NCBI GenBank assembly: GCA_965261645.1
Contig: CBDHDJ010000004.1
Coordinates: forward strand, 2,040,752-2,104,751
From: Alphaproteobacteria bacterium
Lineage (GTDB): Bacteria; Pseudomonadota; Alphaproteobacteria; SHVV01
Direction of reading: 5' to 3'
Length of the DNA: 64,000 nt
The position numbers and the translations under genes are program-made. The first letter of the stretch is position 1, and each line of letters opens with the position of its first letter. The notes beneath the pieces are model-generated. The model worked only from the letters and a program-made list of their open reading frames with translations, was not told the DNA's origin and did no database searches. Shown in pieces: positions 25,473 through 64,000 of this stretch.

Positions 25473-25510
25473 CGCAGCCCGTCTGTTGCCGGAGGAGAGG
25501 CGATCGCCCC

Positions 25511-46220: not shown

Positions 46221-46382
46221 TCATTGCCGGGCCTTGAACTCGGATTCATCGCCGAAATGAAATGAGATTTCGTGTCTTAGGGTGAAACCGTCTTCAATCT
46301 CGACCGATCCGATGCCCTGGGCTTCATCCAGTTCGATGATCTGCCACTTTGCGGTCAGCGGCGTGCCGGCATCGCCCGTCAT
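46221..46382 (-). CDS. IS-borne small ORF (53 aa) overlapping the transposase stop (ATGA), copy A
   Basis: MTGDAGTPLTAKWQIIELDEAQGIGSVEIEDGFTLRHEISFHFGDESEFKARQ. It was found by hand translation and is below the ORF-track length cut-off. It is identical in copy B. Confidence 0.3.
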   Translation of the reverse strand: MTGDAGTPLTAKWQIIELDEAQGIGSVEIEDGFTLRHEISFHFGDESEFKARQ

Positions 46383-47515: not shown

Positions 47516-47577
47516 CCGAAGGAATCACAGAATCATGTCACAACTGCAAATGCGAGGACTTTTTCAGCAGCCTGCTA

Positions 47578-48629
47578 GAGCGTTTTCCTATCATTTGCGG
47601 TCATAGCCGGCAGCAGCGAAGTAGTTTTCGCATTCCGTTGGTGTGAAGGTGTCGATGCCTTGGGCGATGGCGTCCCAGAGGTCATCGACGGTTCGGGCGG
47701 CGGTCTTTTTGAGGAAAGCCTTGAGCTTGGAGAAGGCCATTTCAATGGGGTTAAAGTCAGGGCTGTAGGGCGGCAGGAAGCGCAACTCTGCCGCGGCGAC
47801 TTCGATGGCCGTGCGCACGGCGATGGGTTTGTGGGCGGGTAAGTTATCCATCACCACGATATCGCCGGGTTTGAGCGTCGGGACCAAGACCTGCTCCACA
47901 TAAGCGAGGAAGGCGGCACCATGCATGGCACCGTCGAGCACCATGGGCGCGGTCATGCCTTCAAGGCGGAGCGCGCCAACGAAGGTCGTCGTCTTCCAGT
48001 GTCCATGAGGCACCGGTGCTTGGCAACGCTCGCCCCGTGGCGCCCGGCCGTAACGCCGGCCATCTTGGTCGAAGCGCCGGTCTCGTCAATGAACACCAGC
48101 CGCTCGGGCTTCAGATCGGGTTGGGCGTCGAACCAGGCCTGCCGGCGGCGCAGGACGTCAGCTCGCTGTTGCTCGCAGGCGTGCGCGGTTTTTTTTGAAC
48201 GTCATGCCGTGCCGGTCGAGCAGCCGCCAGACCGTGCTTTGGGCCACCGTCAAGCCATGCCCCGCGTCCAGGTGTGCCGCGATCTCGCCCAAGGTGATGT
48301 CCGGCGTCTCGTCAACCAGCGCCAGGATTTCCTCGGCATGGGCCTCGATCCGGTGCGAGCGGTGGTCACCGCCTTGCGGCCTAGGCCCGACATCGCCCGT
48401 CCGCCGCCACCGATTCACCCATTTGATCGCCGTCGAGGCCGCAACCCCGAAGCGGCGCGCCGCCGAGCGCCGCGACAGGCCGCTGTCAACCGCCGATACA
48501 AGCCGTTCTCGAAGATCATTGGAAAGAGGTTTCGTCATGCAGGCTGGCCTCCTCCACCAGCCCACATCTTGAATCAGAAATTCGATCCCATGGGAATCCC
48601 AAAAAGAATCCGTCAGCTCAGAAAATGCT
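47578..48629 (-). mobile_element. IS630-family insertion sequence (~1.05 kb), apparently defective, flanked by TA
   Basis: The ends are GAGCGTTTTC (47578...) and GAGCATTTTC (reverse complement of ...48629). TA lies at 47576-47577 and 48630-48631, which is the TA target duplication typical of IS630/Tc1. Confidence 0.65.
47591..48538 (-). pseudogene. IS630-family transposase with two compensating frameshifts
   Basis: The N-terminal part (MTKPLSNDLRERLV...TFKK) and the C-terminal DDE part ([25 protein letters not shown]...DNLPAHK...[10 protein letters not shown]) are in the same frame. The ~130 nt between them ([45 protein letters not shown]) reads in another frame. Lesions are at the run of 8 A (48189-48196) and near 48055-48062. 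Confidence 0.65.
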
Positions 48630-48692
48630 CTAGCAGGCTGCTGAAAAAGTCCTCGCATTTGCAGTTGTGACATGATTCTGTGATTCCTTCGG

Positions 48693-49829
48693 GTGATGGA
48701 GGATGGCATGCGGGGTCGAGATCAAAGCAGTGGCAATTTATTCAGCTACGTAGACCTGGAAGAGCGTGTTCCGGATGATCATCCGCTGCGTCTGATCCGT
48801 GAGATCGTGAACGACGTATTGGGGTCTCTATCTTCGGAGTTCGAGACGCTTTATTCCCACATGGGTCGCCCATCGATCCCGCCGGAGAAGCTTCTTCGAG
48901 CGTTACTGTTGCAGGTGTTTTATTCGATCCGCTCGGAGCGTCAGCTGATGGAGCAGCTAAACTTCAACATGCTGTTTCGCTGGTTTGTGGGGCTTGGGCT
49001 GGACGATGGCGTGTGGGACGCCAGCGCGTTCTGCCACAACCGGGACCGTCTTCTGGAGGCGGAGGTTTCGGCGCAGCTGCTTGCGGGGGTTATCCAGCAC
49101 CACAAGGTACGGGGACTATTGAGCCGGGATCATTTTTCGGTAGACGGAACATTGATCGAGGCCTGGGCGTCGATGAAGAGCTTTCGTCCCAAAGGTGAGG
49201 ACGATGGCGACGGGGGATCGGGGCGCAACGCCGAGCGGGATTTTCATGGCGAGAAACGCTCGAACGCGACCCATGCAAGCACCACTGATCCGGACGCCCG
49301 GCTTTATCGCAAGGGTAATGGCCGGGAAAGCAAGCTGTGTTACATGGGCCATGCGCTGACGGAGAACCGCCATGGTCTGGCAGTCGGCGGCGGCGTGACC
49401 ATTGCGTCGGGCACGGCGGAACGCGAAGCCGCCCTTGATCTGATCGACAGGCATCGCCCGGTGGAGAGTAGAGGCGGCCCGCGTCGGATCACGGTGGGCG
49501 GGGACAAGGGTTTTGACGTCGCGGATTTTGTCGAGGAACTGCGGCACCGCAAGGTGACCCCCCATATCGCCGTCCAGGACCACGTCACCAAGACCGGCAA
49601 GCGGCGCAAGACCAAGATAGACGGGCGCACGACGCGCCATCCCGGTTACGGCGTCAGCCAACGTTGCCGTAAGCGCATCGAGGAGGTCTTCGGCTGGGTC
49701 AAGACGAGCGCGGGATTGAGCAAGACCAAATTCCGGGGCCGCCACCGGGTCGACGCTTCGTTCACCCTGGCCTTGGCCGCCTACAACCTCGTCCGACTAC
49801 CCAGACTGCTGGCGGAGGCGCCAACATGA
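48693..49829 (+). CDS. IS5-family DDE transposase (378 aa), copy B
   Basis: The translation is identical to copy A. It uses a GTG start at 48693. Confidence 0.85.
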   Translation: MMEDGMRGRDQSSGNLFSYVDLEERVPDDHPLRLIREIVNDVLGSLSSEFETLYSHMGRPSIPPEKLLRALLLQVFYSIRSERQLMEQLNFNMLFRWFVGLGLDDGVWDASAFCHNRDRLLEAEVSAQLLAGVIQHHKVRGLLSRDHFSVDGTLIEAWASMKSFRPKGEDDGDGGSGRNAERDFHGEKRSNATHASTTDPDARLYRKGNGRESKLCYMGHALTENRHGLAVGGGVTIASGTAEREAALDLIDRHRPVESRGGPRRITVGGDKGFDVADFVEELRHRKVTPHIAVQDHVTKTGKRRKTKIDGRTTRHPGYGVSQRCRKRIEEVFGWVKTSAGLSKTKFRGRHRVDASFTLALAAYNLVRLPRLLAEAPT

Positions 49830-50006: not shown

Positions 50007-51032
50007 CTAGTCTACTCTGAGCTGCCCCATATATTGCAGCCGCACCTGGTCGACCACGATGGCGAGGATCAATACGCTGCCGAGTACGATCTGTTGAACG
50101 TAGCTCTCGACCCGGATGAGGTTCATGCCGTTGGTCAACAGCGTGATGAAGAAGGCGCCCAGGATGACGTTGCCGACGCGTCCGATACCACCGAACAGCG
50201 ATACGCCGCCGATCACGCAGGCCGCGACCGACTGCAGCACGAGCGGCTGACCGAGGGTCGATTCGCCGGTGCCCGTCCGCGCCATCAGCAAGAGGCCGCA
50301 ACAGGACGCGAGAAAGCCGCAAATGATGTAGGCGAAGAAGATGTGCTTGCGCGTATTCACACCCGAGAGCCGGGCCGCCCGCCGGTTGCTGCCGATGGCG
50401 TAGAAGTAGCGCCCCACCCGCGTCCAGTTGAGGATGAAATAGAGGGCCAAGAATAGTCCCCCTGTATAGTACAGCGGCGCCGGTATGCCGACTATTCGGC
50501 CGTAGCCGAAGACCAGGCTGTAGCCATCCGGAATACCGTAGATCGGCACGCCGCCGCTAATCGTGAGCGCCACACCGAACACCACCGACAACATGCCGAG
50601 GGTCATCATGAAAGGCGGCACGTTGAGGATGGCGACACCAAATCCGTTGATGGTGCCGACGATGACGCCGACACCCAGTCCCGCGAGCATGCCGATAACG
50701 ATCGCGAACATGATCGCGTCCGGCGATCCCCCGAGGATGCTCGCCATGACCATGGCAGCGGTGACGCTGGTGAGCGCGATGCACGAGCCCAGCGAGAGGT
50801 CGAATCCCGCGGTCAGCAGCACCGTCATTTGGCCCATCGAGACGATCGCCAGATAAGTCGTCTGGCGCACCACGTTGAACAGGTTCTGCCCACCGAGGAA
50901 ACGGTGCTCCAAAGAGCCAAAAAATATTAGTGCGAAAACCAGCAGCACGGGCAGGATGCCCATGCTGATGAAGATTGCGCGGGCGGCATTGACGATCGGG
51001 TTGGCGGAGGTTTTTTCTGTAACGTCTGTCAT
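50007..51032 (-). CDS. Carbohydrate-type (RbsC/AraH-like) ABC transporter permease
   Basis: 341 aa, polytopic, with the BPD_transp_2-like pattern (TAGFDLSLGS..., RTGTGES...). The stop TAG is the reverse complement of 50007-50009, inside the flanking CTAG. Confidence 0.75.
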   Translation of the reverse strand: MTDVTEKTSANPIVNAARAIFISMGILPVLLVFALIFFGSLEHRFLGGQNLFNVVRQTTYLAIVSMGQMTVLLTAGFDLSLGSCIALTSVTAAMVMASILGGSPDAIMFAIVIGMLAGLGVGVIVGTINGFGVAILNVPPFMMTLGMLSVVFGVALTISGGVPIYGIPDGYSLVFGYGRIVGIPAPLYYTGGLFLALYFILNWTRVGRYFYAIGSNRRAARLSGVNTRKHIFFAYIICGFLASCCGLLLMARTGTGESTLGQPLVLQSVAACVIGGVSLFGGIGRVGNVILGAFFITLLTNGMNLIRVESYVQQIVLGSVLILAIVVDQVRLQYMGQLRVD

Positions 51033-51057: not shown

Positions 51058-52680
51058 TTAACTGCGTTTCGCCGCAACGCTCGAACTTTCCACACCCTCG
51101 GCGAAGAAAGCGTTCAAGAGATTCTCTTCGGTGATCTCGTCGCCCTCGAAATGGGCGCGCACGGCACCGTTGTGGATGACGTACACCCGGTTCGTCAGGT
51201 TGAGTATCTCGGGCAACTCGGAGCTGATGAGAACGACCGCCACACCTTGCTTCACGAGGTCCTTGAGAAACTCATAGACCTCTGTCTTGGCGCGGACATC
51301 GACACCGATTGTCGGCTCATCGAGGAGGAAAACCTTGGTCTCGCGGGCGATGCATTTGGCGAGCAGGATCTTCTGCTGGTTGCCGCCGGAGTACGTGTTG
51401 ACGTCCTTCTCCATCGCCAGCGGCGTCACGCGCATGCGCTCGGCCAGTTTATAGGTGATGGTGCGCTCGGCGGCGCGGTGAAGCACGCCCAACGACGACA
51501 AGGTCGGAAGATCGAGGGCGGCCAGCGAAACATTCTCGCGCGTCGGTCGGTCCACCATCAGGCCCTCCGTGCGGCGATCCGGCGGCACGTAACACATGCC
51601 GCGGGCGAGATTGGCGCCAGCGCTGAGGCGGCTCAATCGCTCGCCCATGAACTCGATCGTCCCCTGTTCGATGGGCTCGATCCCGAAGCAGGCACGCCCG
51701 ATCTCCGATTTGCCACAGCCGACCAGGCCGGCCAGACCGACGATCTCGCCACCGCGCACCTCGATCGAAACGTCCGTGACGCGATGATCGCGCGTCGTAA
51801 GGTCTTTGACGGCGAGACGGACATCGCCGGGCTGATGGGTGATATCAGGGAAGAAATCGCCGACCGGGCGGCCCGTCATGAGCTCGACAAGCTGTTGCTG
51901 ACTGGCTGACTTCGCTCCGACGGTATCGATGTATTTGCCGTCGCGCAGCACGGTGACCCGGTCGCCGACCTCCTGGATTTCGGCGACGCGGTGCGTGATG
52001 TAGATGATGGCGACGCCTTCCTTCTGCAGCAACGCGATGAGTTCGAACAGCTGGTTCACCTCGCGCTCGGTGAGCGAGGAGGTCGGCTCGTCGAGAATGA
52101 GGATCTTCGGGTTGGTGAGCATCGCCTTGGCGATCTCGGTCATCTGCTGCTGGGCACGGGACAAGCTCGACACGAGCGCCCTCGAGGGAATGTCGAAGCC
52201 CAGGCGCTCGACGATTTCTTTCGCCTTGGCGCGCGCCGTGCCCTTGTCGAGGATCAGGCCGGCCATGGGCTCGGCGCCGAGGAAGATGTTCTGCTCGACG
52301 GTCAGATCCGGCGCCAGGCTGAATTCCTGGAACACCGCCGCGATCCCCTGGTTACGCGCGTCGTGAACCGATTCGAGCTGAACCTGCCGGCCGTTCAGCG
52401 TGATGCTGCCCTCGTCGGGATGGACCGCGCCGGCCAGAATGTTGATCAGCGTGGACTTGCCGGCGCCATTCTCGCCGAACAGGACATGGACTTCGCCCTG
52501 ATCCAACTCGAAGTCGACAAAGTCGAGCGCGCGTACGCCGCCGAAGTTCTTGCAGATGCCGTGCAACCGCAACAACTCATCGCTGCTGGCGCTGCCAGCT
52601 TCCACGGTCGCGGTCGGTGGCGCGCCTGCCGCAGGCGTCGCTTTAGGGCGCTGTGCGCCATGATCGGTAGTGTCTGACAT
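51058..52680 (-). CDS. Sugar-type ABC transporter ATP-binding protein with duplicated ATPase domains (RbsA-like)
   Basis: There are two Walker A motifs (GENGAGKST; GLVGCGKSE) and signature motifs LSRAQQQM / YSGGNQQK. Confidence 0.8.
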   Translation of the reverse strand: MSDTTDHGAQRPKATPAAGAPPTATVEAGSASSDELLRLHGICKNFGGVRALDFVDFELDQGEVHVLFGENGAGKSTLINILAGAVHPDEGSITLNGRQVQLESVHDARNQGIAAVFQEFSLAPDLTVEQNIFLGAEPMAGLILDKGTARAKAKEIVERLGFDIPSRALVSSLSRAQQQMTEIAKAMLTNPKILILDEPTSSLTEREVNQLFELIALLQKEGVAIIYITHRVAEIQEVGDRVTVLRDGKYIDTVGAKSASQQQLVELMTGRPVGDFFPDITHQPGDVRLAVKDLTTRDHRVTDVSIEVRGGEIVGLAGLVGCGKSEIGRACFGIEPIEQGTIEFMGERLSRLSAGANLARGMCYVPPDRRTEGLMVDRPTRENVSLAALDLPTLSSLGVLHRAAERTITYKLAERMRVTPLAMEKDVNTYSGGNQQKILLAKCIARETKVFLLDEPTIGVDVRAKTEVYEFLKDLVKQGVAVVLISSELPEILNLTNRVYVIHNGAVRAHFEGDEITEENLLNAFFAEGVESSSVAAKRS

Positions 52681-52877: not shown

Positions 52878-53279
52878 TCAACCGCCAGCGCCCTTGAATC
52901 CGATGGCGTCGATCTCGACGAGGAGCTCGGCGCGGGCGAGCGTCGTGTTGCCGAGAGCCACCGCGCAGGGGAAATCGCCAGTGAAGAACTTCTTACGGGC
53001 CTCGACCATGGCCGGGCGATAACGCATGTCTGTAAGATAGATCGTCAACTTCACAATGTCGTCCATCTTCGCCCCGATCGCTTCCACCATGTGCTGGATG
53101 TTGCGGAAGGTCTGCATCGCTTGCTCGGAGGGGTCGAAACCGCCGAGGACGGTGCCGTCCGGTTCGGTTGAGACCATGCCGGCGATGACGAACTGATCGC
53201 CGAAAACAAACGCGTTCGACCACATGCCCGGGGGCTGCTCGCGGACCTTGGGCGATTTCACGCGGACGTTCTTGGCCAT
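52878..53279 (-). CDS. Single-domain RidA/YjgF/L-PSP family protein (133 aa)
   Basis: ATG 53279 follows GGGAGG. GDQFVIAGMVS...PSEQAMQTFRNIQHMVEAIGAKMDDIVKLTIYL...LVEIDAIGFK shows the RidA fold pattern. Confidence 0.7.
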   Translation of the reverse strand: MAKNVRVKSPKVREQPPGMWSNAFVFGDQFVIAGMVSTEPDGTVLGGFDPSEQAMQTFRNIQHMVEAIGAKMDDIVKLTIYLTDMRYRPAMVEARKKFFTGDFPCAVALGNTTLARAELLVEIDAIGFKGAGG

Positions 53280-53391
53280 CCCTAACCTCCCTGTCGTACC
53301 CTGCGATGACATCAGGCCATGCTCTTCGCCACCGCCGCGACGCCAGTTTAGGGCCTAAAGATCGCGAATCATACGGGCTTATTTTGCGCGT

Positions 53392-55749
53392 TCAGCTGGC
53401 CGCCTCTCGAATGGCTTCGAGCACGCGCATCGGTGTCATCGGCATTTCGACATGGCGCACGCCGAGATGCCACAACGCGTCGACTACCGCGTTGGCCACC
53501 GCTGCCGGCGCGCCGATCGCGCCGCTTTCGCCAATCCCCTTGATGCCGAGCGGATTGTCGGGCGCCAGCGTTTCCTGCGTGGCCAGGCGGAACGACGGGA
53601 GATCGCCCGCGCGGGGCAGGGCGTAGTCCATCAAGGTGGCGCTCAGGAATTGCCCGGATTGGGAATCGTAGATGCAGTGCTCCATGAGCGCCTGAGCGAT
53701 ACCCTGCACGGCGCCGCCATGAACCTGACCCTCGACAATCAGGGGATTGACGATGCGGCCGACGTCATCGACAGAGCAAAAATCGCGCGGCCGGATTCTC
53801 CCGGTCTCCGCATCCACGATGACGACGCAAAGGTGCATCGACGATGGATAATTGTAGTCCGGCGGGTCGTAGAACACCGTCTCCTCGAGGCCGAGCTCGA
53901 AGCCGTCCGGGTAGTCGGCGCCGTAATAGGCTGCATTGGCTACCTCGGCGAAGGAGAGCTTGCGATCGGTGCCCTGCACAACGAATTGGCCTTCGCCGTA
54001 ATCGATGTCGCCCGGCGCGCACTCCAAGAGATGCGCGGCAAGCGTGCGGCCCTTCGCGATGATGCGCTCGGTGCCCACCGCCATCGCAGCGCCGTTCACC
54101 GACATGGAGCGCGATCCCCACGTTCCCAGCCCGAACGGAACCCGGTCCGTATCGCCCTCGACGATCTCGATATCGTCAATGTCCAGCCCAAGCCCATCGG
54201 CGGCGACCTGGGCGAATGTCGTGGCATGGGCCTGGCCGTGATTTTGGCTGCCGCAGAACACCGTCACCTTGCCGGTGGGGTGGACCCGCAGATTGGTGAC
54301 ATCCCAGAAGCCGATGCGCCCGCCCTCCTCGTTGATGCGTTTGCTCGGCCCGGCGCCGGCCATGTCCATGAAGCTGCTGACGCCGATTCCCATCAGGGCT
54401 CCGTTACGCCGCTGGCGCGCCTGCTCGGCGCGTAGCGCGTCGTAATCGGCCAATGTTCGCAGCTTGTCCAGCAGGCCGCCCGGGTTGCCCGAATCGTAGG
54501 TAACGCCCGTCGGACTGGTGTAGGGATACTGGTCCGGCTGGATCAGGTTGCGGTCGCGCAGCTCGCAAATATCGATACCCATCTCCCGGGCGCCGTTCTC
54601 GAGCAGGCGCTCGAGCACGTAGAGCGCTTCGGGCCGCCCGGCGCCGCGGTACGCGTCGGTCGGTACGGTGTGGGTGTAAACGCCCAATACGCGGCCGTAG
54701 ACCGCCGGCAGGGTGTACATGCCGGGCAGCATGGAGGCGGAGAACACGGTCGGGATACAGGGTCCGAAGACACTCAGATACGCGCCCATCGATGCGATCG
54801 TATCGGCGCGCAGCGCGAGAATATCGCCGTTCTCGCCGAACGCCATCCGGCATGTGGTGACATGGTCACGGGCATGGGTATCGGTGCTGAGGCTTTCGGC
54901 GCGGGTCGCGGTCCAGCGCACCGGCCGGCCAATCTTCCGGGCGGCCCACAACACGGTCGGCTCCTCCGGGTAGTGGAAGAATTTGGGGCCGAAGCCGCCG
55001 CCCACGTCGGGCGCGACGACGCGGATCTTGTGTTCGGGAACGAGGAGCGATTCCTCAGCCAGCCAGCGGCGCGCCATGTGCGGCCCTTGGGTCGTGGACC
55101 AAAGGGTGTAGTCCTCGTCGGATGAATCGTAGCGCCCGACGACGGCACGGGGCTCGATGTAGCCCGGAGACAGCCGATTGTTGATCAGTTCGAGTTCGGT
55201 GACGTGGTGCGCCGCGGCAAACCCGGCCTCGACGGCAGCTTCGTCGCCGATCTCCCAATCGAAGCATAGATTGGTGCCGAACTCCTCGTGGACGAGCGGC
55301 GCATCCGGATCGATCGCCCGGGCGGTATCGACGACGGCCGGTAATGGCTCGTAATCCACCGCCACGGCCTCGGCCGCATCCAACGCCTGATGGGGCGTCT
55401 CGGCCACCGCCATGGCCACCGTATCGCCGACAAATCGCACGCGATCCGCACTCAGCATGTTCCGCCTCGCCTCGCGCATCGGCGTGCCGTCGCGTGAGGT
55501 GATCTCCCACACCACCGGGGCCTTGCCACGGCCCTCGTCTTCCCAGTCCTGGCCGGTCAGGACTGGGAAGACGCCGGGCATGGCTTTGGCCTTGTCGGTT
55601 GCGAAACCCCTGATTCTCGCGTGCGCGTGCGGGCTCCGCACATAGGCGGCGTACGTCATATCGGGCATCGTCACGTCATCGACGAAGGTGCCCCGGCCAA
55701 CGAGAAACCGGTAGTCTTCACGGCGTTTCAGCGCTTTGCCGATATACAT
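53392..55749 (-). CDS. Xanthine dehydrogenase/CoxL family molybdopterin-binding large subunit (785 aa), closest paralog of 4302..6659
   Basis: MYIGKALKRREDYRFLVGRGTFVDDV, TDAYRGAGRPE and NPLGIKGIGESG are present. It has the same length as the 4302 copy. Confidence 0.8.
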   Translation of the reverse strand: MYIGKALKRREDYRFLVGRGTFVDDVTMPDMTYAAYVRSPHAHARIRGFATDKAKAMPGVFPVLTGQDWEDEGRGKAPVVWEITSRDGTPMREARRNMLSADRVRFVGDTVAMAVAETPHQALDAAEAVAVDYEPLPAVVDTARAIDPDAPLVHEEFGTNLCFDWEIGDEAAVEAGFAAAHHVTELELINNRLSPGYIEPRAVVGRYDSSDEDYTLWSTTQGPHMARRWLAEESLLVPEHKIRVVAPDVGGGFGPKFFHYPEEPTVLWAARKIGRPVRWTATRAESLSTDTHARDHVTTCRMAFGENGDILALRADTIASMGAYLSVFGPCIPTVFSASMLPGMYTLPAVYGRVLGVYTHTVPTDAYRGAGRPEALYVLERLLENGAREMGIDICELRDRNLIQPDQYPYTSPTGVTYDSGNPGGLLDKLRTLADYDALRAEQARQRRNGALMGIGVSSFMDMAGAGPSKRINEEGGRIGFWDVTNLRVHPTGKVTVFCGSQNHGQAHATTFAQVAADGLGLDIDDIEIVEGDTDRVPFGLGTWGSRSMSVNGAAMAVGTERIIAKGRTLAAHLLECAPGDIDYGEGQFVVQGTDRKLSFAEVANAAYYGADYPDGFELGLEETVFYDPPDYNYPSSMHLCVVIVDAETGRIRPRDFCSVDDVGRIVNPLIVEGQVHGGAVQGIAQALMEHCIYDSQSGQFLSATLMDYALPRAGDLPSFRLATQETLAPDNPLGIKGIGESGAIGAPAAVANAVVDALWHLGVRHVEMPMTPMRVLEAIREAAS

Positions 55750-55925
55750 GCAGATCCTCCCCGAACGTGCGGCGCAGCATACGCATGTCGGGACTGTGTC
55801 CGGCCGATTAGGCGTCAGGCGTCAAATTATCGGTGATGACCGCCCCCATTGTGGCACTGACTCTCCCCTGATTCTCGCGCTGGTGCAACCGCCATGACAA
55901 GTATGAAGCGAACGGCAAATCCTTG

Positions 55926-55955
55926 CCTCGGGCGCTCGTTTTTCGCTATGGTGGA
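55926..55955 (+). promoter_or_regulatory. Sigma-70-like promoter candidate for amidohydrolase unit 1 (TTGCCT-18 nt-TATGGT)
   Basis: It has the same architecture and the same relative position as the candidates upstream of units 2-5. Confidence 0.35.
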
Positions 55956-56085
55956 GAAGGTGCCCTTGCTCCGGAACACTTATCGCTGGGATAGGTTCGT
56001 TCGCGCAAGAGCGCGGAAGAAGGCCTATCACTGGGCGTCATTATATTCATCGCAACTTGCATCATCACGTAAGGGAAACGGGACT

Positions 56086-57471
56086 ATGTCTAACTATCTG
56101 ATCAGCAGCGGCTCCGTGCTCGACTGCACCGGGGCCAAACCCAAGAAGAACACCTCGGTGTTCGTCGAGGGCAACCGCATCGCCAAGATCGGCGAAGAAG
56201 CGGCGGTCAAGAAGTTCGCCGAAGGCAAAAAATACAAGACCATCGACGCGGGCGGTAAGACCATCATGCCGGGCATGATCGACACTCACGTGCACCCGTC
56301 ATATGGCGAGATCACCGCAGTCGAGGAGGTCGAGCTCTACACGCCGGTCGAATACCGCACCCTGAAGGCGGCGCTCGCCGTCAAGAAGGTGCTGCGCGCG
56401 GGCGTGACCAGCGTGTGCGCACCGGGCGGCACGTTCAACATCAACGTGGCGTTGCGGGATGCGGTGGCCTCGGGCCTGATCGAGGGGCCGCGCATCTCGG
56501 CCGGAAGCCAGTACATGACGACCTACAACGCGATCGGCTCGTTCTTCCCGAGCCACATCGAGCATCCGGTGTCGTCACTGGCGGTCCTGGTCAATACCAA
56601 GGACGAGATGGTTGCCCAGACCCGCAAGGCCATCAAGGACGGCTGCGATGTGGTCAAGGTCTCGGGCGAGGACGGCTTCGGTGACGATCTTTACGGCTCG
56701 ATTACACTCGAGGAGATGAAGGCCATCACCGAGATCACCCATCTCATGGACAAGAAGGTGGCGATCCACGCCCGTGCCGGGCGCTTGTCGGCCGATGCCG
56801 CTCGTGCCGGCTTCGACTGGATCATCCACGCTTCGACTATGACCGACGATGATCTCGCGGTGGTCGTCGAGCACGGCACGCCGATCAACCCGACGTTCGC
56901 GCTGCTCGTCAACGCCATCGAGTGGGGCCCTGATCTCGGCATCCATCCGATGCTGTGCGAGGCGTTCAAGGCCGAGGTCGAGGTCGCGGCCAAGATCCTC
57001 AGCAAGGCGTACAAGGCGGGCGTCATGATGTTGGCCGGGACCGATTCGGGCCAGCTCTCGGTGCCCTCGGGCGAGTGGCATGCGCGCGAGATCGAGCACC
57101 ATGTCAACTACCTCGGCATGAGCAACATGGACGCCATCCTGTCGGCCACGAAGAACGCCGCCTTTACGCTGCCCTTCGGCCATGAGGTCGGCACCCTCGA
57201 GGAAGGCAAGCTCGCGGACATCCTGGTGGTGAACGGCGATCCGTTGGCCGACGTCACCATCCTGCAGGATAAATCGCGCCTCGAGGTCATCATGCAGGAC
57301 GGTGAGATCATCGACACCTCGATACCGATCGACACGCCGCAGAAGTACTCCTGGGAGCTTCCCATGGTCATGTGGTCGGATCCGCGGCTGCCGGATCAGG
57401 AGTTTGTCCGCCAGTACGCCAAGCAAAAGCCGAACTGGATGAAGAAGGCGGGGAAGAAGGCGGCCGAGTAG
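56086..57471 (+). CDS. Metal-dependent amidohydrolase family protein, tandem paralog 1 (461 aa)
   Basis: ATG 56086 (MSNYLISSG). HxH motif DTHVHPS. Candidate ligand residues are VKVSGE (Lys), IHARAG, IIHAS and AGTDSG. Confidence 0.8.
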   Translation: MSNYLISSGSVLDCTGAKPKKNTSVFVEGNRIAKIGEEAAVKKFAEGKKYKTIDAGGKTIMPGMIDTHVHPSYGEITAVEEVELYTPVEYRTLKAALAVKKVLRAGVTSVCAPGGTFNINVALRDAVASGLIEGPRISAGSQYMTTYNAIGSFFPSHIEHPVSSLAVLVNTKDEMVAQTRKAIKDGCDVVKVSGEDGFGDDLYGSITLEEMKAITEITHLMDKKVAIHARAGRLSADAARAGFDWIIHASTMTDDDLAVVVEHGTPINPTFALLVNAIEWGPDLGIHPMLCEAFKAEVEVAAKILSKAYKAGVMMLAGTDSGQLSVPSGEWHAREIEHHVNYLGMSNMDAILSATKNAAFTLPFGHEVGTLEEGKLADILVVNGDPLADVTILQDKSRLEVIMQDGEIIDTSIPIDTPQKYSWELPMVMWSDPRLPDQEFVRQYAKQKPNWMKKAGKKAAE

Positions 57472-57514
57472 CCCAAATACCAATAGATTCTGCCCGTTTC
57501 GGGCAAACCTGGTC

Positions 57515-57551
57515 GACCGGTGCGGCGCCTCGCCGCACCGGTCTTTACTTT
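57515..57551 (+). terminator. Rho-independent terminator candidate after amidohydrolase 1
   Basis: A 13-bp stem (GACCGGTGCGGCG / CGCCGCACCGGTC) is followed by TTTACTTT. Confidence 0.6.
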
Positions 57552-57595
57552 GCGATTCGCTCGCATCCAAGAAATCACTTGATTCCGCTCCCTGC

Positions 57596-57624
57596 TTGCG
57601 CGCAATGGGCCGCAGCCCTATGAT
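57596..57624 (+). promoter_or_regulatory. Promoter candidate for unit 2 (TTGCGC-17 nt-TATGAT)
   Basis: Seen directly, and positionally equivalent to the other units. Confidence 0.35.
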
Positions 57625-57727
57625 GCCCCCAGGATCAGCAGTAACCATCGCTTATAGACGCGTTGTCCCGGCGCCCCAGGGCCCTCGGCGCAATGCTTTC
57701 AGTAGCAACCCACATGGGAGTTCAAAC

Positions 57728-59119
57728 ATGGCCAATTACCTCTTTTCCGGCGGCACGGTCATCGACTGCACCGGAGCCAAGCCGAAGAAGGCGGCGGTCT
57801 TCATCGAAGGCAACCGCATCGCCAAGATCGGCGAGGAAGCGGCGGTCAAGAAGTTTGCCGAGGGCAAGAAGTACAAGACCGTCGATGCCTCGGGCAAAAC
57901 CGTCATGCCCGGTATGATCGACTGTCACGTGCACCCGTCCTACGGCGACATCCTCTCGATCGAGGAGCTCGATCTCTACTCGACGGTCGAGTACCGCACG
58001 CTGAAGTCGGCCCATTTCATCAAGAAGGTACTGCGGGCCGGCATTACCGCCATGGGTTGCCCGGGCGGCACGTGGAACATCAACGTGGCGCTCAGGGATG
58101 CGGTGGCCTCGGGCCTCATCGAGGGGCCGCGCATCTCGGCCGGCGGACACTACCTGTCGACCTACAACTCGACCGGCTCGTTCTTCCCGAGCCATATCGA
58201 GCATCCGAAGTCGTCCTTCGCCGTCATGTGCAACACCAAGGAAGAGTTCGTGAAACAAGCCCGCCTCGAGATCAAGAACGGCGTCGACATCGTCAAGGTC
58301 TCGGGTGACGGTGATACCGGCACGACCGCCGGGATGGCCCTCGCCGGCAGCATCACTTTAGAGGAGCTCAAGGCGATTGCCGAGATCGTGCACCTGATGG
58401 ACAAGAAGTGCACGATCCACGCGCGTTCGGGCCGCGTGTCGGCCGATGCCGCACGGGCCGGCTTCAGCTACCTCACCCATTGCTCGTACGTGAACGACGA
58501 GGAAATCGGTGTGGTGATCGACAGCCAGATTCCGATCAACCCGACTCTGGCGTTGCTCGCCCAGGGCCTCGAGTGGGGGCCGGACGTCGGCCTGCACCCG
58601 ATGGTGATCGATAGCTTCAAGCGTGAGCTCGATGCGGCATCCAAGTCGCTCACCAAGGCCTACAAGGGTGGCAACACGTTCATGGCCGGGACCGATTCGG
58701 GTCAGCTCACCGTGCCTTATGGCGCCTGGCATGCTCGCGAGCCCGAGCATCTGATGAACTTTGTCGGCTTGAGCTCGATGGATGCGCTTTTGTCCATCAC
58801 CAAGAACGCGGCGATCGCCTTCCCGGACAATGCCGGCATCGGCACCCTGGCGGAAGGCAATCTTGCCGATGTGCTGGTGGTCGATGGCGATCCCCTGAAG
58901 GACATCACGGTGCTGCAGGATGCCAGCCGCCTCAACGTCATCATGCAGGATGGTGAAATCATCGACACCTCGGAGCCGATCGAAGATCCAATGCCGTACT
59001 CTTGGGAGTTGCCGATGATCATGTGGTCGGATCCCCGGCTGCCGGATCAGAACTTCGTGCGCGAGCACGCCAAGCAGAAGCCCAAGTGGATGCAAAAGCG
59101 GGCGAAAGCGGCGGAGTAA
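57728..59119 (+). CDS. Metal-dependent amidohydrolase family protein, tandem paralog 2 (463 aa)
   Basis: ATG 57728 (MANYLFSGG) follows GGGAG. It has DCHVHPS and is colinear with the other paralogs. Confidence 0.8.
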   Translation: MANYLFSGGTVIDCTGAKPKKAAVFIEGNRIAKIGEEAAVKKFAEGKKYKTVDASGKTVMPGMIDCHVHPSYGDILSIEELDLYSTVEYRTLKSAHFIKKVLRAGITAMGCPGGTWNINVALRDAVASGLIEGPRISAGGHYLSTYNSTGSFFPSHIEHPKSSFAVMCNTKEEFVKQARLEIKNGVDIVKVSGDGDTGTTAGMALAGSITLEELKAIAEIVHLMDKKCTIHARSGRVSADAARAGFSYLTHCSYVNDEEIGVVIDSQIPINPTLALLAQGLEWGPDVGLHPMVIDSFKRELDAASKSLTKAYKGGNTFMAGTDSGQLTVPYGAWHAREPEHLMNFVGLSSMDALLSITKNAAIAFPDNAGIGTLAEGNLADVLVVDGDPLKDITVLQDASRLNVIMQDGEIIDTSEPIEDPMPYSWELPMIMWSDPRLPDQNFVREHAKQKPKWMQKRAKAAE

Positions 59120-59160
59120 GAGGTTAGCCGCGAGTTCCACTCGTTTAAGTCTGAATTTGG

Positions 59161-59197
59161 AGGCCGGTGCGGCGCAAGTCGCACCGGTCTTTTTCTT
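59161..59197 (+). terminator. Rho-independent terminator candidate after amidohydrolase 2
   Basis: The AGGCCGGTGCG...CGCACCGGTCT stem is followed by TTTTCTT. Confidence 0.6.
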
Positions 59198-59242
59198 GCT
59201 ATGCGCAGTTGATTATTGATGATTCAAGCCCGCGCGCCCGGC

Positions 59243-59272
59243 TTGACGCTGTTCCAGCGCGAGCCTTACGAT
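59243..59272 (+). promoter_or_regulatory. Promoter candidate for unit 3 (TTGACG-18 nt-TACGAT)
   Basis: Seen directly. Confidence 0.4.
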
Positions 59273-59382
59273 AGGGTAGGAATTGAGCGGCCTGGAGCGC
59301 CGCGGGTGGCATCGCGCCAGTGGGTCGATTAGCGCGCGGTGCCGGGAAGCAATCGATCAACTCCATTGGAGGAGCAGCGACA

Positions 59383-60774
59383 ATGGCTAATTATCTGATT
59401 ACCGGCGGGACGGTCATCGACTGCACCGGGGCCAAGCCGAAGAAAGCGGCTGTCTTCATCGAAGGCAATCGTATCGCCAAGATCGGCGAGGATGCGGCGC
59501 TGAAGAAGTACGCCGCAGGCAAGACGTACAAGGCGATAAACGCGTCGGGCAAAACCGTCATGCCCGGCATGATCGACTGCCATGTGCATCCGTCCTTTGG
59601 CGATATCATCTCGATCGAGGAGCTCGATCTCTATTCGACGGTCGAATACCGCACCCTGAAATCGGCCCACTATATCAAGAAGGTGTTGCGGGCCGGCATC
59701 ACCAGCATGGGTTGCCCGGGCGGTGTGTGGAACATCAACGTGGCGCTCCGGGATGCGGTCGCCTCGGGTCTCATCGAGGGGCCGCGCATTTCGGCAGCCG
59801 GTCACCTGCTCTCGACGTGGAATTCCACGGGCTCGTTCTTCCCGACCCATTTGGAGCACCCCAAATCGTCGGGCGGGGTCATTTGCAACACGACGGACGA
59901 GTTCGTGAAGCAGGCACGTCTCGAGATCAAGAACGGCGTCGACATCGTCAAGGTGGGCGGCGATGGCGACACGGGAACCACGGCCGGGCAGGACCTGACG
60001 GGAAGCATCACGCTCGAGGACTTGAAGGCGATCGCCGAGATCACGCACCTGATGGACAAGAAGTGCACCATCCACTGCCGTTCGGGCCGCGTCTCGGCCG
60101 ATGCCTCACGGGCCGGTTTCGATTACCTCCTCCATTGCTCGTACATGAACGACGAGCACGTGGGCGTGGTGATCGACAACCAGACGCCGATCAACCCGAC
60201 GCTCGCGTTGCTGGTACAGGGCCTCGAATGGGGGCCGGATGTCGGCCTGCACCCGATGGTCATCGACAGCTTCAAGCGTGAAATCGACGCGGCGACCAAG
60301 TCTCTGAGCAAGGCCTACAAAGGCGGCATCATGTTCATGGCGGGCACCGATTCGGGTCAGCTCACGGTGCCCTACGGCGCCTGGCACGCCCGCGAGCCCG
60401 AGCATCTCATGAACATCGTCGGCTTGAGCTCGATGGATGCGCTGTTGTCCATCACCAAGAATGCGGCGTTCTGCTTTCCCGCCAATGCCGGAGTCGGCAC
60501 CCTGGAAGTGGGCAATTATGCGGATGTTCTGGTGGTCGATGGCGATCCCCTGAAGGACATCACCGTGCTTCAGGATCCCAGCCGTCTCAACGTCATCATG
60601 CAGGATGGCGAGATTGTAGATACCTCGGAGCCGATCGAGGATCCGGTGCCGTACTCGTGGGAGCTACCGATGATCATGTGGTCGGATCCCCGTCTGCCGA
60701 CGCAGGAGTTCGTGCGCGAGCACGCCAAGCGGAAGCCCAAGTGGATGCAAAAGCGGGCGAAGGCAGCGGAGTAA
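59383..60774 (+). CDS. Metal-dependent amidohydrolase family protein, tandem paralog 3 (463 aa)
   Basis: ATG 59383 (MANYLITGG) follows GGAGGAG. It has DCHVHPS. Confidence 0.8.
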   Translation: MANYLITGGTVIDCTGAKPKKAAVFIEGNRIAKIGEDAALKKYAAGKTYKAINASGKTVMPGMIDCHVHPSFGDIISIEELDLYSTVEYRTLKSAHYIKKVLRAGITSMGCPGGVWNINVALRDAVASGLIEGPRISAAGHLLSTWNSTGSFFPTHLEHPKSSGGVICNTTDEFVKQARLEIKNGVDIVKVGGDGDTGTTAGQDLTGSITLEDLKAIAEITHLMDKKCTIHCRSGRVSADASRAGFDYLLHCSYMNDEHVGVVIDNQTPINPTLALLVQGLEWGPDVGLHPMVIDSFKREIDAATKSLSKAYKGGIMFMAGTDSGQLTVPYGAWHAREPEHLMNIVGLSSMDALLSITKNAAFCFPANAGVGTLEVGNYADVLVVDGDPLKDITVLQDPSRLNVIMQDGEIVDTSEPIEDPVPYSWELPMIMWSDPRLPTQEFVREHAKRKPKWMQKRAKAAE

Positions 60775-60833
60775 GCGGTTACCCGCGATTTCCGCTCGCT
60801 TGAGCGCAACATCTCGCTTGAGCGCACATAATG

Positions 60834-60870
60834 AGGCCGGTGCGGCGCCTGTCGCACCGGCCTTTTTATT
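60834..60870 (+). terminator. Rho-independent terminator candidate after amidohydrolase 3
   Basis: The AGGCCGGTGCG / CGCACCGGCCT stem is followed by TTTTATT. Confidence 0.6.
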
Positions 60871-60915
60871 GGCCGCAGGGGATCGACGACGGATATCTCA
60901 TCTCATCGACCGAGC

Positions 60916-60945
60916 TTGACGTTCATTGGGTCCAAGTCCTACGAT
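60916..60945 (+). promoter_or_regulatory. Promoter candidate for unit 4 (TTGACG-18 nt-TACGAT)
   Basis: Seen directly. Confidence 0.4.
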
Positions 60946-61054
60946 GACGCCAAGATTTGACGCAGCGCGTGCCGGATCTGCATGGCTCTTGCGCGGTCCA
61001 TTGCGGAGAGCGCAGAACGGCCCTTCACGAACTCCATTGGGGGAGTAAAAGAGA

Positions 61055-62443
61055 ATGGCTAACTACCTCTTTACTGGCGGAACGGTCATCGACTGTACCG
61101 GGGCCAAGCCGAAGAAGGCGGCGGTCTTCACCGAAGGCGACCGCATCGCCAAGATCGGCGAGGAAGCGGCGGTCAAGAAGTTTGCCGAGGGCAAGAAATA
61201 CAAGACGATCGATGCCTCGGGCAAAACCGTCATGCCCGGCATGATCGACTGCCACGTGCATCCGTCCTACGGCGAGGCCGGCTCGATCGAGGCGCTCGAT
61301 CTCTATTCGACGGTCGAGTACCGCACGCTGATAGCGGCCCACTCCATCAAGAAAGTGCTCCGGGCCGGCATCACCAGCATGGGTTGCCCGGGCGGTGTGT
61401 GGAACATCAACGTGGCGCTCAGGGATGCGGTGGCCTCGGGCCTCATCGAGGGGCCGCGCATCTCGGCCGGCGGGCACTACTTGTCGACATGGAACTCCAC
61501 CGGTTCGTTTTTCCCGAGCCATATGGAGCATCCGGTCTCGTCGGTTGGCAGGATCTGCAACACCAAGGACGAGTTCATCGCGGCGGCACGCCTCGAGATC
61601 AAAGACGGTGTCGATATCGTCAAGATCTCGGGCGACGGCGATACCGCGACCGGCACCATGGATGTCCTCGGTAGCATCACCTTCGAGGAAATGAAGGCGG
61701 TCGCAGATATCACCCACCTGATGGACAAGAAGATCACCGGACACTGCCGCGGAGGCCGGGCCACCGTCGATGCGGTGCGTGCCGGCTTCGACTGGGTCTG
61801 CCACGCCTCGTTCATGAGTGATGACGACATCGGTGTCGTGATCGATCATCAGACGCCGTTGAACCCGTCGCTGACGATCTATGCGCAGCTCATCGAATGG
61901 GGACCTGATCTCGGCGTCCACCCGGCGCTTATCGACAGCTTCAAGCGCGAGCTCGATGCGGCCTCGAAGGCGCTCAGCAAGGCCTATAAGGGCGGCATCA
62001 CGATTATGGCCGGGACCGACTCCGGTCAGTTCACCGCGCCGTCCGGCGAGTGGCATGCGCGCGAGCCCGAGCATCTCATGAACATCGTGGGCTTGAGCCC
62101 GATGGATGCGATTTTGTCCATCACTAAGAATGCCGCGATCGTCTTTCCGGATAACTCCGGTATCGGGACCCTGGAGGAAGGCAAATTCGCCGATGTGCTC
62201 GTGGTGAACGGCGATCCCTTGAAGGACATCACGGTCATTCAGGATAAGTCCCGCATCGAGGTGATCATGCAGGGTGGTGAGATCATCGATACATCGGAGC
62301 CGATCGAGGATCCGATTCGGTACCCGTGGGAATTGCCGATGGTCATGTGGTCGGACCCCCGCCTGCCGGATCAGAACTTCGTGCGTGAGCACGCCAAGGT
62401 CAAGCCCAAGTGGATGGAGAAGCGGGCGAAAGCAGCGGAGTAA
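61055..62443 (+). CDS. Metal-dependent amidohydrolase family protein, tandem paralog 4 (462 aa)
   Basis: ORF 61055..62443 (MANYLFTGG). It has DCHVHPS. Confidence 0.8.
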   Translation: MANYLFTGGTVIDCTGAKPKKAAVFTEGDRIAKIGEEAAVKKFAEGKKYKTIDASGKTVMPGMIDCHVHPSYGEAGSIEALDLYSTVEYRTLIAAHSIKKVLRAGITSMGCPGGVWNINVALRDAVASGLIEGPRISAGGHYLSTWNSTGSFFPSHMEHPVSSVGRICNTKDEFIAAARLEIKDGVDIVKISGDGDTATGTMDVLGSITFEEMKAVADITHLMDKKITGHCRGGRATVDAVRAGFDWVCHASFMSDDDIGVVIDHQTPLNPSLTIYAQLIEWGPDLGVHPALIDSFKRELDAASKALSKAYKGGITIMAGTDSGQFTAPSGEWHAREPEHLMNIVGLSPMDAILSITKNAAIVFPDNSGIGTLEEGKFADVLVVNGDPLKDITVIQDKSRIEVIMQGGEIIDTSEPIEDPIRYPWELPMVMWSDPRLPDQNFVREHAKVKPKWMEKRAKAAE

Positions 62444-62482
62444 GCCGCTAGCCACGATATCCGCTCATTTGAGCCCAACGAT

Positions 62483-62520
62483 AAGGCCGGTGCGGTCAAC
62501 GCCGCACTGGCCTTCTTTTT
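62483..62520 (+). terminator. Rho-independent terminator candidate after amidohydrolase 4
   Basis: The AAGGCCGGTGCGG / CCGCACTGGCCTT stem (one mismatch or wobble) is followed by CTTTTT. Confidence 0.55.
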
Positions 62521-62568
62521 CAGCTAAAACGGGCGAAAATGCAGGGGTTCGGGCCCCGCTGACTCAGC

Positions 62569-62598
62569 TTGACGGCCTTCCGGCGCGAACCGTATGAT
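62569..62598 (+). promoter_or_regulatory. Promoter candidate for unit 5 (TTGACG-18 nt-TATGAT)
   Basis: Seen directly. Confidence 0.4.
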
Positions 62599-62704
62599 GG
62601 CGTCAATGTTAGCTGCATAGGTGACTGGGAATCATTGCGCCGGCCAGATCGAGGGCGGGCGGAGTATTTCCCGCAAACTTCAACTCCATTCGGGGAGCCT
62701 CAGG

Positions 62705-64000
62705 AATGGCCAATTATCTCATTAACAACGGGACCGTCTTGGATTGCACCGGGGCCAAGCCCAAGAAGAACACTTCGGTGTTCGTCGAGGGCAACCGTAT
62801 CGCCAAGATCGGCGAGTCCGCGAAGGTCAAGAAGTACGCCGAGGGCAAGAAGTACAAGACGATCGACGCCGGCGGAAAGACCATCATGCCGGGCATGATC
62901 GACTGCCACGTGCATCCCTCCTACGGCGACATCATCGCGATCGAGGAGCTCGAGCTTTACAGCAACGTCGAGTACCGCACGCTCAAGTCTGCGCTGGCTT
63001 GCAAGAAAGTGCTCCGCGCCGGCGTGACCAGCATGGGCTGCCCGGGCGGCGTGTGGAACATCAACGTGGCGCTCAGGGATGCCATCAACTCCGGTCTCAT
63101 CGAGGGCCCCCGGATGACGGCCGGCGGCCACTATCTCTCGACGTGGAACTCCACCGGCTCGTTCTTTCCGACCCATATGGAGCACCCCAAATCGTCGGTC
63201 GGCGTGCTGTGCAACACGACGGAAGAGTTCGTGAAGCAGGTCCGCCTCGAGATCAAGAACGGCGTCGACATCGTCAAGATTTCGGGCGACGGCGACACCA
63301 CCTCGACAGCCGGCATGGATCTCCTGGGCTCGATCACCCTCGACGACCTGAAGGCGATCTCGGAGATCGTCCACCTCATGGACAAGATGGTGACGATCCA
63401 TGCCCGCTCGGGCCGCGCCTCGCGGGATGCCGCGTTGGCCGGCTTCACCTGGCTCACCCACGGCTCCTACATGTCGGACGAGGACCTCGCGGTGGTCATC
63501 GATTGCGGCACCCCGATCAATCCGACCTTCGCCCTGCTCGCCAACACCATCGATTGGGGCCCGGACCTCGGCATGCACCCGGCGATCATCGACAGCTACA
63601 AGCGTGAAGTGGACGCCGCCTCCAACATCCTCAGCAAAGCCCACAAACAGGGCGTGATGATCATGGCCGGGACCGACTCGGGCCAGACCGCGGTGCCCTA
63701 TGGTGATTGGCATGCGCGCGAGATGGAGCATTTGATGACCTATCTCGGCATGAGCGCTATGGATGCGTTGCGGGCCGGTACCATCAATGCTGCGTTCGTG
63801 CTGCGCATGCAGGATCAGATCGGCACACTGGAGGAGGGCAAGCTTGCTGACATTCTCGTAGTGAAGGGCGATCCGCTGGCCGACATCGCGGTGTTGCAGG
63901 ACAAGTCCCGCCTCGAAGTAATCATGAAAGACGGCGAGATCGTCGATACCTCGATTCCAATCGAGACGCCGGTGCCCTATCCGTGGGAGTTGCCGATGGT
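62705..64000 (+). CDS. Metal-dependent amidohydrolase family protein, tandem paralog 5; 3' end lies outside the window
   Basis: This gene is not in the ORF track because no stop falls inside the window. Hand translation from ATG 62705 gives MANYLINNGTVLDCTGAKPKKNTSVFVEGNRIAKIGE...DCHVHPS...PYPWELPMV, colinear with paralogs 1-4. Confidence 0.75.

Follow-up and report, generated by a model that had tools for sequence, protein, structure and literature searches.

The amidohydrolase array and its active sites

This study concerns a tandem array of amidohydrolase genes at the end of a 64,000-nt stretch of DNA from an alphaproteobacterium (GenBank assembly GCA_965261645.1, contig CBDHDJ010000004.1). 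The whole stretch is called the window, positions given without a locus number refer to it, and the region studied comprises 55926-64000. Five paralogous genes lie here on the plus strand, with ATG start codons at 56086, 57728, 59383, 61055 and 62706 according to open reading frame (ORF) listing and translation. Copy 1 (56086-57471) encodes 461 amino acids (aa), copies 2 (57728-59119) and 3 (59383-60774) encode 463 aa each and copy 4 (61055-62443) encodes 462 aa. Copy 5 (62706-64000) is cut by the window end; on the five-copy locus L004 the gene is complete and encodes 464 aa. All five proteins matched the Pfam family PF01979 (Amidohydro_1) with 79-120 bits at a cut-off of 25 (copy 1: E = 1.5e-31), they share the N-terminus M(S/A)NYL, and their pairwise identities amount to 66-87% at the aa level and 71-85% at the DNA level. 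ORF listing, translation and Pfam assignment thus confirmed five tandem paralogs on one strand, as described in the initial annotation. Its first three start-to-start distances (1642, 1655 and 1672 nt) were reproduced, and the last one is 1651 nt instead of 1650 nt. On the extended contig no further copies follow downstream of copy 5, and the array stops at five copies in this strain.

The metal ligands of the amidohydrolase active site, HxH (H68/H70), K191, H228, H248 and D320, are invariant in 17 array copies of three genomes and in 11 other relatives, and in alignments they coincide with the ligand motifs of relatives of solved structure, for example 3mtw. The pattern of HxH, Lys, His, His and Asp had been reported for all copies before, and it indeed holds for the five copies as well as for their relatives. 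The five aligned copies, which had been proposed to be isozymes, carry no inactivating ligand substitution. A binuclear-metal ligand scheme has been described for the homolog CaeD (PMC5636949).

Spacer architecture and transcription

The four spacers between the genes have a length of 256-280 nt and a common layout, consisting of a small hairpin, a 13-15 bp GC hairpin with a U-run, a −35/−10 pair, a leader and a Shine-Dalgarno site. By consensus scan and folding, we located the 3′ elements on the plus strand at 57492-57543 after copy 1 (small hairpin 57492-57504, terminator-like hairpin with U-run 57515-57543), 59139-59192 after copy 2 (59139-59150 and 59159-59192), 60794-60864 after copy 3 (small hairpin doubled, terminator-like hairpin 60833-60864) and 62463-62514 after copy 4 (62463-62474 and 62483-62514). 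RNA folding of the four 3′ regions yielded free energies of −33 to −57 kcal/mol with z-scores of −3.2 to −5.5. The core of the large hairpin reads GGCCGGTGCGG in three terminators and GACCGGTGCGG after copy 1. The exact core GGCCGGTGCGG is enriched in the 64-kb window with all exact matches confined to the array, on which ground we rejected the idea that the hairpin is a genome-wide repeat of the repetitive extragenic palindromic (REP) type. A hairpin with T-run built on the same core had been assigned to every gene; this is correct for copies 1-4, but the hairpin downstream of copy 5, which lies beyond the window on the extended contig, differs from the other four. In the spacer between copies 3 and 4, a 17-nt tandem duplication at 60794-60830 (CTCGCTTGAGCGCA..) doubles the small hairpin, and this duplication accounts for the longest distance in the array (1672 nt). 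The related five-copy array of L088, a diverged genome, has a single copy of the 17-nt unit.

Upstream of each gene we found a promoter-like site on the plus strand with sigma-70-type hexamers at a spacing of 17-18 nt. The sites of copy 3 (59243-59272) and copy 4 (60916-60945) read TTGACG-18-TACGAT and that of copy 5 (62569-62598) reads TTGACG-18-TATGAT, which corresponds to 9-10 matches to the 12 consensus positions. The formula TTG(A/C)C(G/T)-17/18-TA(T/C)GAT given in the initial annotation fits these three copies exactly, whereas it describes copy 1 (TTGCCT-18-TATGGT, 55923-55952) and copy 2 (TTGCGC-17-TATGAT, 57596-57624, weaker than the others) only loosely. The 64 kb contain three matches to the motif CTTGAC-N19-TAYGAT (0.21 expected), each of them in register upstream of copy 3, 4 or 5. 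The copy 1 site is identical in L088 and in the array of L089, although the L089 flanks diverge; the sequence upstream of copy 1 is conserved among the closest genomes only. The −10 box stands 133, 103, 110, 109 and 107 nt ahead of the ATG in copies 1-5, in agreement with the earlier estimate of leaders of roughly 100-130 nt. An Rfam scan of 55000-64000 revealed no family reaching its gathering score, and the consensus fold of 11 leaders (RNAalifold) reached −6 kcal/mol, with a 4-bp CUCC/GGAG stem over the Shine-Dalgarno site as the sole consistent element. A riboswitch or structured leader was dropped as a candidate on the basis of these two results.

The same architecture of terminator, −35/−10 pair, leader and Shine-Dalgarno site is shared by 13 spacers from three genomes. 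These spacers have drifted to about 60-70% identity, and the conserved blocks are the hairpin stem, the −35 and −10 boxes and the Shine-Dalgarno site. Furthermore, the promoter-leader half of a spacer follows the type of the downstream gene even where the gene order is altered. The common architecture of the four window spacers and of the 13 spacers across three genomes bears out the earlier proposal that the duplicated unit contained the regulatory signals.

RNA data were available as assembled metatranscriptome contigs (marine, seawater and sponge) from strains 90-97% identical to the array. The contigs end at 57514 and 57541 (copy 1), 59145 (copy 2) and 62474 and 62476 (copy 4), i.e. at the hairpins or 0-15 nt before them, these being ends of assembled contigs and not mapped 3′ ends. 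Contig starts were found at 55979 in the copy 1 leader, at 59293 for copy 3 (first aligned base; the alignment begins about 7 nt after the contig's own start) and at 60973 and 60995 for copy 4. Taking the predicted transcription start as 6-8 nt after the −10 box, they fall 15-45 nt past the predicted starts in three predicted leaders, again as starts of assembled contigs and not as primary 5′ ends. None of the contigs crosses a spacer or occupies the gap between terminator and promoter. The contig depth was highest for the copy 2 type (16-27) and lower for the types of copy 1 (1-4) and copy 3 (0-3).

As a separate observation, near-identical RNA (query 57450-59400) was detected in runs labelled as marine, seawater and sponge metatranscriptomes. 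These run labels indicate that the organism or close relatives live and are transcriptionally active in marine or sponge habitats.

Motif conservation, the unequal depth of neighbouring genes and the lack of a spacer-bridging contig make it likely that the five genes are transcribed separately in this organism, and the monocistronic units of the initial annotation have therefore gained indirect support from related-strain contigs. Several points weigh against this reading. The U-run of the copy 1 terminator is interrupted, and the promoters of copies 1 and 2 are further from the consensus. On the RNA side, the data are assembled contigs from related strains instead of ends mapped in this organism, and expression is poorly reflected by contig depth. 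Assemblies break at repeats and GC hairpins are difficult to sequence, so that the missing coverage of the spacers is weak evidence as well.

These reservations lead to the question of whether the array could instead be one polycistronic operon transcribed from the copy 1 promoter, in which the hairpins act as partial terminators or as RNA-stabilising or -processing elements that set the amounts of the segments. The genes are co-oriented and regularly spaced, a conserved small hairpin stands ahead of each large hairpin, and both the contig ends at or before the hairpins and the unequal depth would also be expected from segmental mRNA decay. Such an operon is, however, hard to reconcile with the occurrence of CTTGAC-N19-TAYGAT in register not only before copies 3-5 but also in L088 and L089 (single-base variants in L089) within flanks of about 60-70% identity, with RNA contigs that start in three predicted leaders while none covers the terminator-to-promoter gaps, and with 13-15 bp GC stems plus U-runs in spacers of 256-280 nt. 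We therefore regard a single operon as unlikely and favour five separately transcribed units.

Age, selection and remodelling of the array

The paralogs are separated by a synonymous divergence (dS) of 0.49-0.76, and the ratio of nonsynonymous to synonymous substitution (dN/dS) between positional orthologs of two other genomes is 0.06-0.18 for every copy. Judged by these rates, the copies are old and each of them is kept under purifying selection. In addition, the array of L088 has the identical five-gene order, with orthologs 96-98% identical in aa sequence (copy 4: 89%) and a dS to the window of 0.12-0.19 for four copies. A matching five-copy array in a diverged genome agrees with the initial view that selection maintains the array. 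Since the ligands are intact, the reading frames are free of frameshifts and dN/dS is low (0.06-0.18), all copies look functional, as had been supposed. A pseudogene or decay reading was rejected in view of the intact frames and metal ligands and the low dN/dS.

To some extent, the positions of the differences between the copies point to what may have been selected. In the amidohydrolase fold, the loops after the ligand-bearing strands form the substrate pocket. We counted 22 positions that are fixed within a type and show at least three states between types, and they cluster at 198-203, 234-250, 327 and 339, directly after the strands bearing K190, H231, H251 and D323 (all in copy 2 numbering). 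Because these type-specific residues adjoin the metal ligands, diverged specificities are favoured over dosage. Against this it has to be held that the specificity differences are read solely from the positions of substitutions and that the subfamily is uncharacterised.

If the array were a dosage amplification, the copies would do one job and more copies would simply mean more enzyme. This would be in line with the varying copy number among relatives (1, 2, 5 or 7) and with L089, whose extra copies all belong to the copy 5 type. Where selection favours dosage, the amplified copies should be of recent origin, nearly identical and unstable. The paralogs, in contrast, are 13-34% apart in protein sequence with a dS of 0.49-0.76, a diverged genome has retained positional orthologs of all five types, the type-specific residues are found beside the metal ligands, and the copies are unequally expressed in related strains, as far as contig depth tells. 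The initial annotation had left the choice between selection for dosage and for a spectrum of related substrates; with this divergence we consider dosage very unlikely, and a spectrum of substrates is the better, inferred reading.

In a bootstrapped neighbour-joining (NJ) tree with outgroups, the copy-1 type, copies 2+3 and copies 2+3+4 were each recovered with 100% bootstrap. The placement of copy 5 is weak, with 49% for a grouping with copies 2-4 and 18% for one with copy 1; its aa identity is 74-75% to copies 2 and 3 and 71% to copy 1. Thus, of the two subtypes distinguished earlier by eye, copies 2-4 form a real clade, but copies 1 and 5 do not. The NTS insertion and the LADI...LQDKSRLEVIM motif of copies 1 and 5 recur in the outgroups and in the family consensus, which is why we regard them as ancestral and copies 2-4 as the derived group.

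The tree was complemented by a test for gene conversion, and conversion is detectable between copies 2/3 and copy 4. Copies 2 and 4 agree at 80-95% of the third codon positions in codons 0-140 but at 52-59% in codons 140-260, and the longest identical runs measure 75 nt for copies 2/4 (permutation p = 0.001) and 60 nt for copies 3/4 (p = 0.002). This contrast together with the long identical runs indicates that the 5′ third of the gene has undergone gene conversion or recombination; in copy 4, this part is a mosaic with copies 2 and 3. Copy 4 is also unusual in another respect. In the window it has 136 lineage-specific sites (other copies: 27-36), and it is separated from its L088 ortholog by a dS of 0.37, where the remaining copies show 0.12-0.19. 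Between copy 4 of L088 and the third gene of L089, dS is as low as 0.15. In a polarised test, the 136 lineage-specific sites match all other paralogs at 38-53%, a range that fits retained ancestral states or allelic exchange equally well as conversion by copy 2. The history of copy 4 is discordant with that of its neighbours, and we suspect allelic exchange or conversion as the cause.

Additional arrays were found solely through exact-protein look-ups in ENA assemblies. Four ENA metagenome contigs hold copy 4 exactly and differ from the window in 2-6 bases per 2.9 kb over 61055-64000. The number of copies is seven in L089, five in L088 and L001-L004, two in L085 and L086 and one in L087, L160 and L005-L010. 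The gene order of L089 is 1, 2, a 4-type, a 3-type and then three 5-types, i.e. copies 3 and 4 are swapped relative to the window. L087 and L160 carry one copy-1-type gene directly after a molybdenum (Mo)-hydroxylase gene. In L087, half of the copy-1 terminator is kept and an IS1595-type transposase gene lies about 330 bp past the cut; because of these two features, the single copy of L087 is most likely a truncated array. Searches of genome contigs yielded single-copy genes as best relatives (56-57% identity), those of JGI metagenome contigs just two short contigs (about 70% identity), and a search of the PLSDB plasmids gave matches of at most 39% identity. The subfamily was found almost exclusively in uncultured Alphaproteobacteria, and a literature search for described amidohydrolase arrays or an enrichment in sponge symbionts retrieved nothing relevant. 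One homolog on a JGI contig of 1667 bp (P0002) is a mosaic, copy-2-like in residues 1-40 (97%) and copy-1-like in residues 40-120 and 320-460 (92-100%); it represents either a natural recombination product of array genes or a chimera of the assembly.

Unequal crossing-over is recognised by direct repeats of a gene with its homologous spacer, by polymorphism of copy number and order and by recombination between copies, and all of these features are present here. We thus consider it probable that several rounds of unequal crossing-over, each time with a unit of about 1.65 kb, built up the tandem array. This unit would have comprised an amidohydrolase gene and a spacer with intrinsic terminator, sigma-70-type promoter, leader of about 105 nt and Shine-Dalgarno site. 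Copies 1 and 5 would represent two ancient types, and copies 2-4 would have arisen later from one ancestor, which is sister to copy 5 in the NJ tree (49%).

Three array spacers of relatives contain an insertion sequence (IS) of about 1.4 kb (L003:5225-6908, L003:8301-10000 and L089:5006-6691), whose transposase is encoded on the strand opposite to the array; the element is absent from the window. It has the ends TGTCG...CGACA, a target duplication of about 17 bp and a transposase of 391-446 aa, which passes the NCBIfam ISNCY model NF033594 (338.7 bits, cut-off 250). The relative insertion point is the same in all three cases, the duplication ending in ..GCT just 5′ of the −35 TGAC and about 36 nt past the terminator hairpin. 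The IS1202 family includes a subgroup with duplications of 16-17 bp, and the ISAjo2 subgroup targets dif sites (PMC10132070). These properties suggest that the element belongs to the former subgroup and that insertion is target-specific there, too. The IS sits between terminator and −35 box and leaves the −35/−10 pair and the downstream genes intact, as would be expected of self-contained units. For L003, this argument is undermined by the near identity of the locus to the window: the insertions are recent there, and intact downstream genes carry little weight.

Enzyme subfamily, genomic neighbourhood and comparison with known systems

The AlphaFold2 model of copy 2 (predicted local distance difference test 91.3, predicted template modelling (TM) score 0.90) shows a (beta/alpha)8 barrel with a beta-sandwich formed by the N- and C-terminal parts. 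A Foldseek search with this model retrieved ochratoxinase, prolidases, Arg carboxypeptidases and ADH3 at TM scores of 0.78-0.91, and profile searches led to the same solved proteins with E-values of 1e-45 to 1e-60. Characterised members of this group cut the amide bond to a C-terminal amino acid, as in N-acyl-amino acids, Xaa-Pro, ochratoxin A or, in the case of CaeD, a leucinyl group (PMC11511702, PMC5636949).

Two findings argue against placing the array proteins in the characterised equivalog. First, they score 185-222 bits with the NCBIfam model NF051886 (Xaa-Pro dipeptidase), below its cut-off of 500. Secondly, the His of the TGGH loop, which we take to be the oxyanion-hole histidine of M38 aminoacylases, aligns with an Ile or Thr of the subfamily loop in profile alignments to 2qs8, 9kov, 3mtw and 8ihq. 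The subfamily loop reads T(Y/W)N(A/S)(I/T)GSFFP(S/T)H with the variants YNAIG and WNSTG, and an invariant His (H157) is located 7 residues past the position aligned to the TGGH His. The oxyanion-hole histidine is said to be conserved in M38 aminoacylases (PMC11511702). Because the scores stay below the equivalog cut-off and the TGGH His is missing, even the substrate class is uncertain.

Proteins of the subfamily are also extended at the C-terminus by about 50 conserved aa, a part not covered by the solved relatives. One could imagine that the paralogs are subunits of mixed oligomers; this extension would be in line with that, as would the octameric or dodecameric state of characterised relatives (PMC11511702; PDB entries with eight chains). 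Relatives with one or two copies exist, though, and they keep all ligands, and the very unequal RNA depth in related strains is at odds with a fixed stoichiometry; hetero-oligomers are in our opinion very improbable.

The neighbourhood of the array contains genes for transport and catabolism. Divergent from the array, the large subunit of a Mo-hydroxylase (xanthine dehydrogenase / CoxL-like) is encoded at 53392-55749 on the minus strand. It is a conserved neighbour of copy-1-type genes, with the two genes adjoining in six loci if the fragment of L085 is counted (the others include L087, L160, L088 and L089). Family searches further identified a RidA-family protein (52878-53312), a double ATPase of the ATP-binding cassette (ABC) type (51058-52680) and a sugar-type ABC permease (50007-51032), all on the minus strand. 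Beyond the array, the extended contig carries an alpha/beta-hydrolase, two SnoaL-like genes and a periplasmic binding protein. The latter (L004:15121-16203) passes the TorT model (223.7 bits, cut-off 200) and completes the ABC transporter flanking the array; the match to TorT, a periplasmic protein sensing trimethylamine N-oxide, hints at a small amine-type ligand. Near the array-type genes of relatives, Rieske oxygenases, SnoaL-like proteins and gamma-glutamyltranspeptidase recur. Altogether, the locus looks like a catabolic island for nitrogen-containing compounds.

Tandem genes are frequent in the wider surroundings. The window contains five paralogous genes for Mo-hydroxylase large subunits (4302-6659, plus strand; 18370-20700, 20734-23058, 23148-25757 and 53392-55749, minus strand), three of which are in tandem, and two such genes are in tandem beside the L088 array. 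A tandem pair of major facilitator superfamily (MFS) transporters of 407 aa each is located at 7682-8905 and 9080-10303 on the plus strand. The genome region is thus generally prone to tandem expansion of catabolic genes. Two transposase genes with DUF772 and DDE_Tnp_1 domains and identical Pfam scores lie in inverted orientation at 46379-47515 (minus strand) and 48693-49829 (plus strand), with a 249-aa ORF without family match between them (47921-48670). The pair (46379-49829) may constitute a composite transposon. Another transposase with this domain type, distinct from the two of the pair, is encoded at 32922-34286.

Taken together, the full working model, which we hold to be probable, links the growth of the array by unequal crossing-over to the function of its enzymes as follows. 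Each gene would be transcribed from its own promoter up to its own terminator, so that the expression of the five could differ. All copies would use one catalytic machinery with two metal ions bound to HxH, a carboxylated Lys, two His and Asp. Through divergence in the loops next to the ligands, the enzymes together would hydrolyse a range of related amides that probably resemble N-acyl-amino acids or peptides. Uptake of these compounds would be the task of the flanking ABC transporter, and the Mo-hydroxylase, alpha/beta-hydrolase, SnoaL-like and RidA proteins encoded nearby would carry out further processing. In a more far-reaching version, which is conceivable but doubtful as a whole, the array would be an adaptive, individually regulated panel of enzymes tuned to related amides in the marine or sponge habitat. 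The panel would stem from an uncharacterised M38-like subfamily with altered catalytic loop and C-terminal extension, its copy number (1-7) and order would be remodelled by recombination, the IS1202-family element would insert at one fixed point between the units, and the units would behave as exchangeable promoter-gene-terminator modules.

Being deep, old and intact and having orthologous counterparts, the array offers a natural system for enzyme divergence after duplication in bacteria: selection, gene conversion, gain and loss can be read directly from the orthologous arrays. It also points to an uncharacterised amidohydrolase subfamily of uncultured marine Alphaproteobacteria whose substrates are worth finding.

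The comparison with characterised COG1228-type amidohydrolases, which the initial annotation had proposed, revealed a matching fold and matching ligands, and the equivalog cut-off of NF051886 was not reached. The array proteins resemble the COG1228 / MEROPS M38 enzymes Cc2672 (3mtw; L-Arg/Lys carboxypeptidase), the prolidases Sgx9260b and Sgx9260c (3mkv, 3feq/3n2c) and the Xaa-Pro dipeptidase 2qs8 in the predicted structure (TM 0.78-0.91) and in the equivalent HxH/Lys/His/His/Asp ligands. They differ from them in sequence (22-29% identity), in the altered TGGH loop and in the C-terminal extension of about 50 aa. The ochratoxin hydrolases, namely Aspergillus niger ochratoxinase (4c5y-4c65) and ADH3 (8ihq), were the top Foldseek matches (E = 2e-31, TM 0.79/0.84) and share with the array family the superfamily chemistry, in which a C-terminal amino acid is released by hydrolysis of its amide bond. 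Their identity to the array proteins is 23-25%, and they are encoded by single genes, in contrast to the tandem organisation of the array family. The likeness to ochratoxinase is one of predicted fold and superfamily chemistry and is not evidence for ochratoxin as a substrate of the array.

Adjacent paralogs in bacteria are usually packed in operons or are young, unstable amplifications. With the tandem paralog arrays of bacterial catabolic islands, the amidohydrolase array has in common the direct repeats of gene and spacer, the differences in copy number and the gene conversion between neighbours. It is therefore a known kind of system, and no new mechanism has to be assumed. Unlike the usual arrays of such islands, it is five to seven copies deep and old, and it is not packed as an operon but has a full terminator-promoter pair in each spacer.

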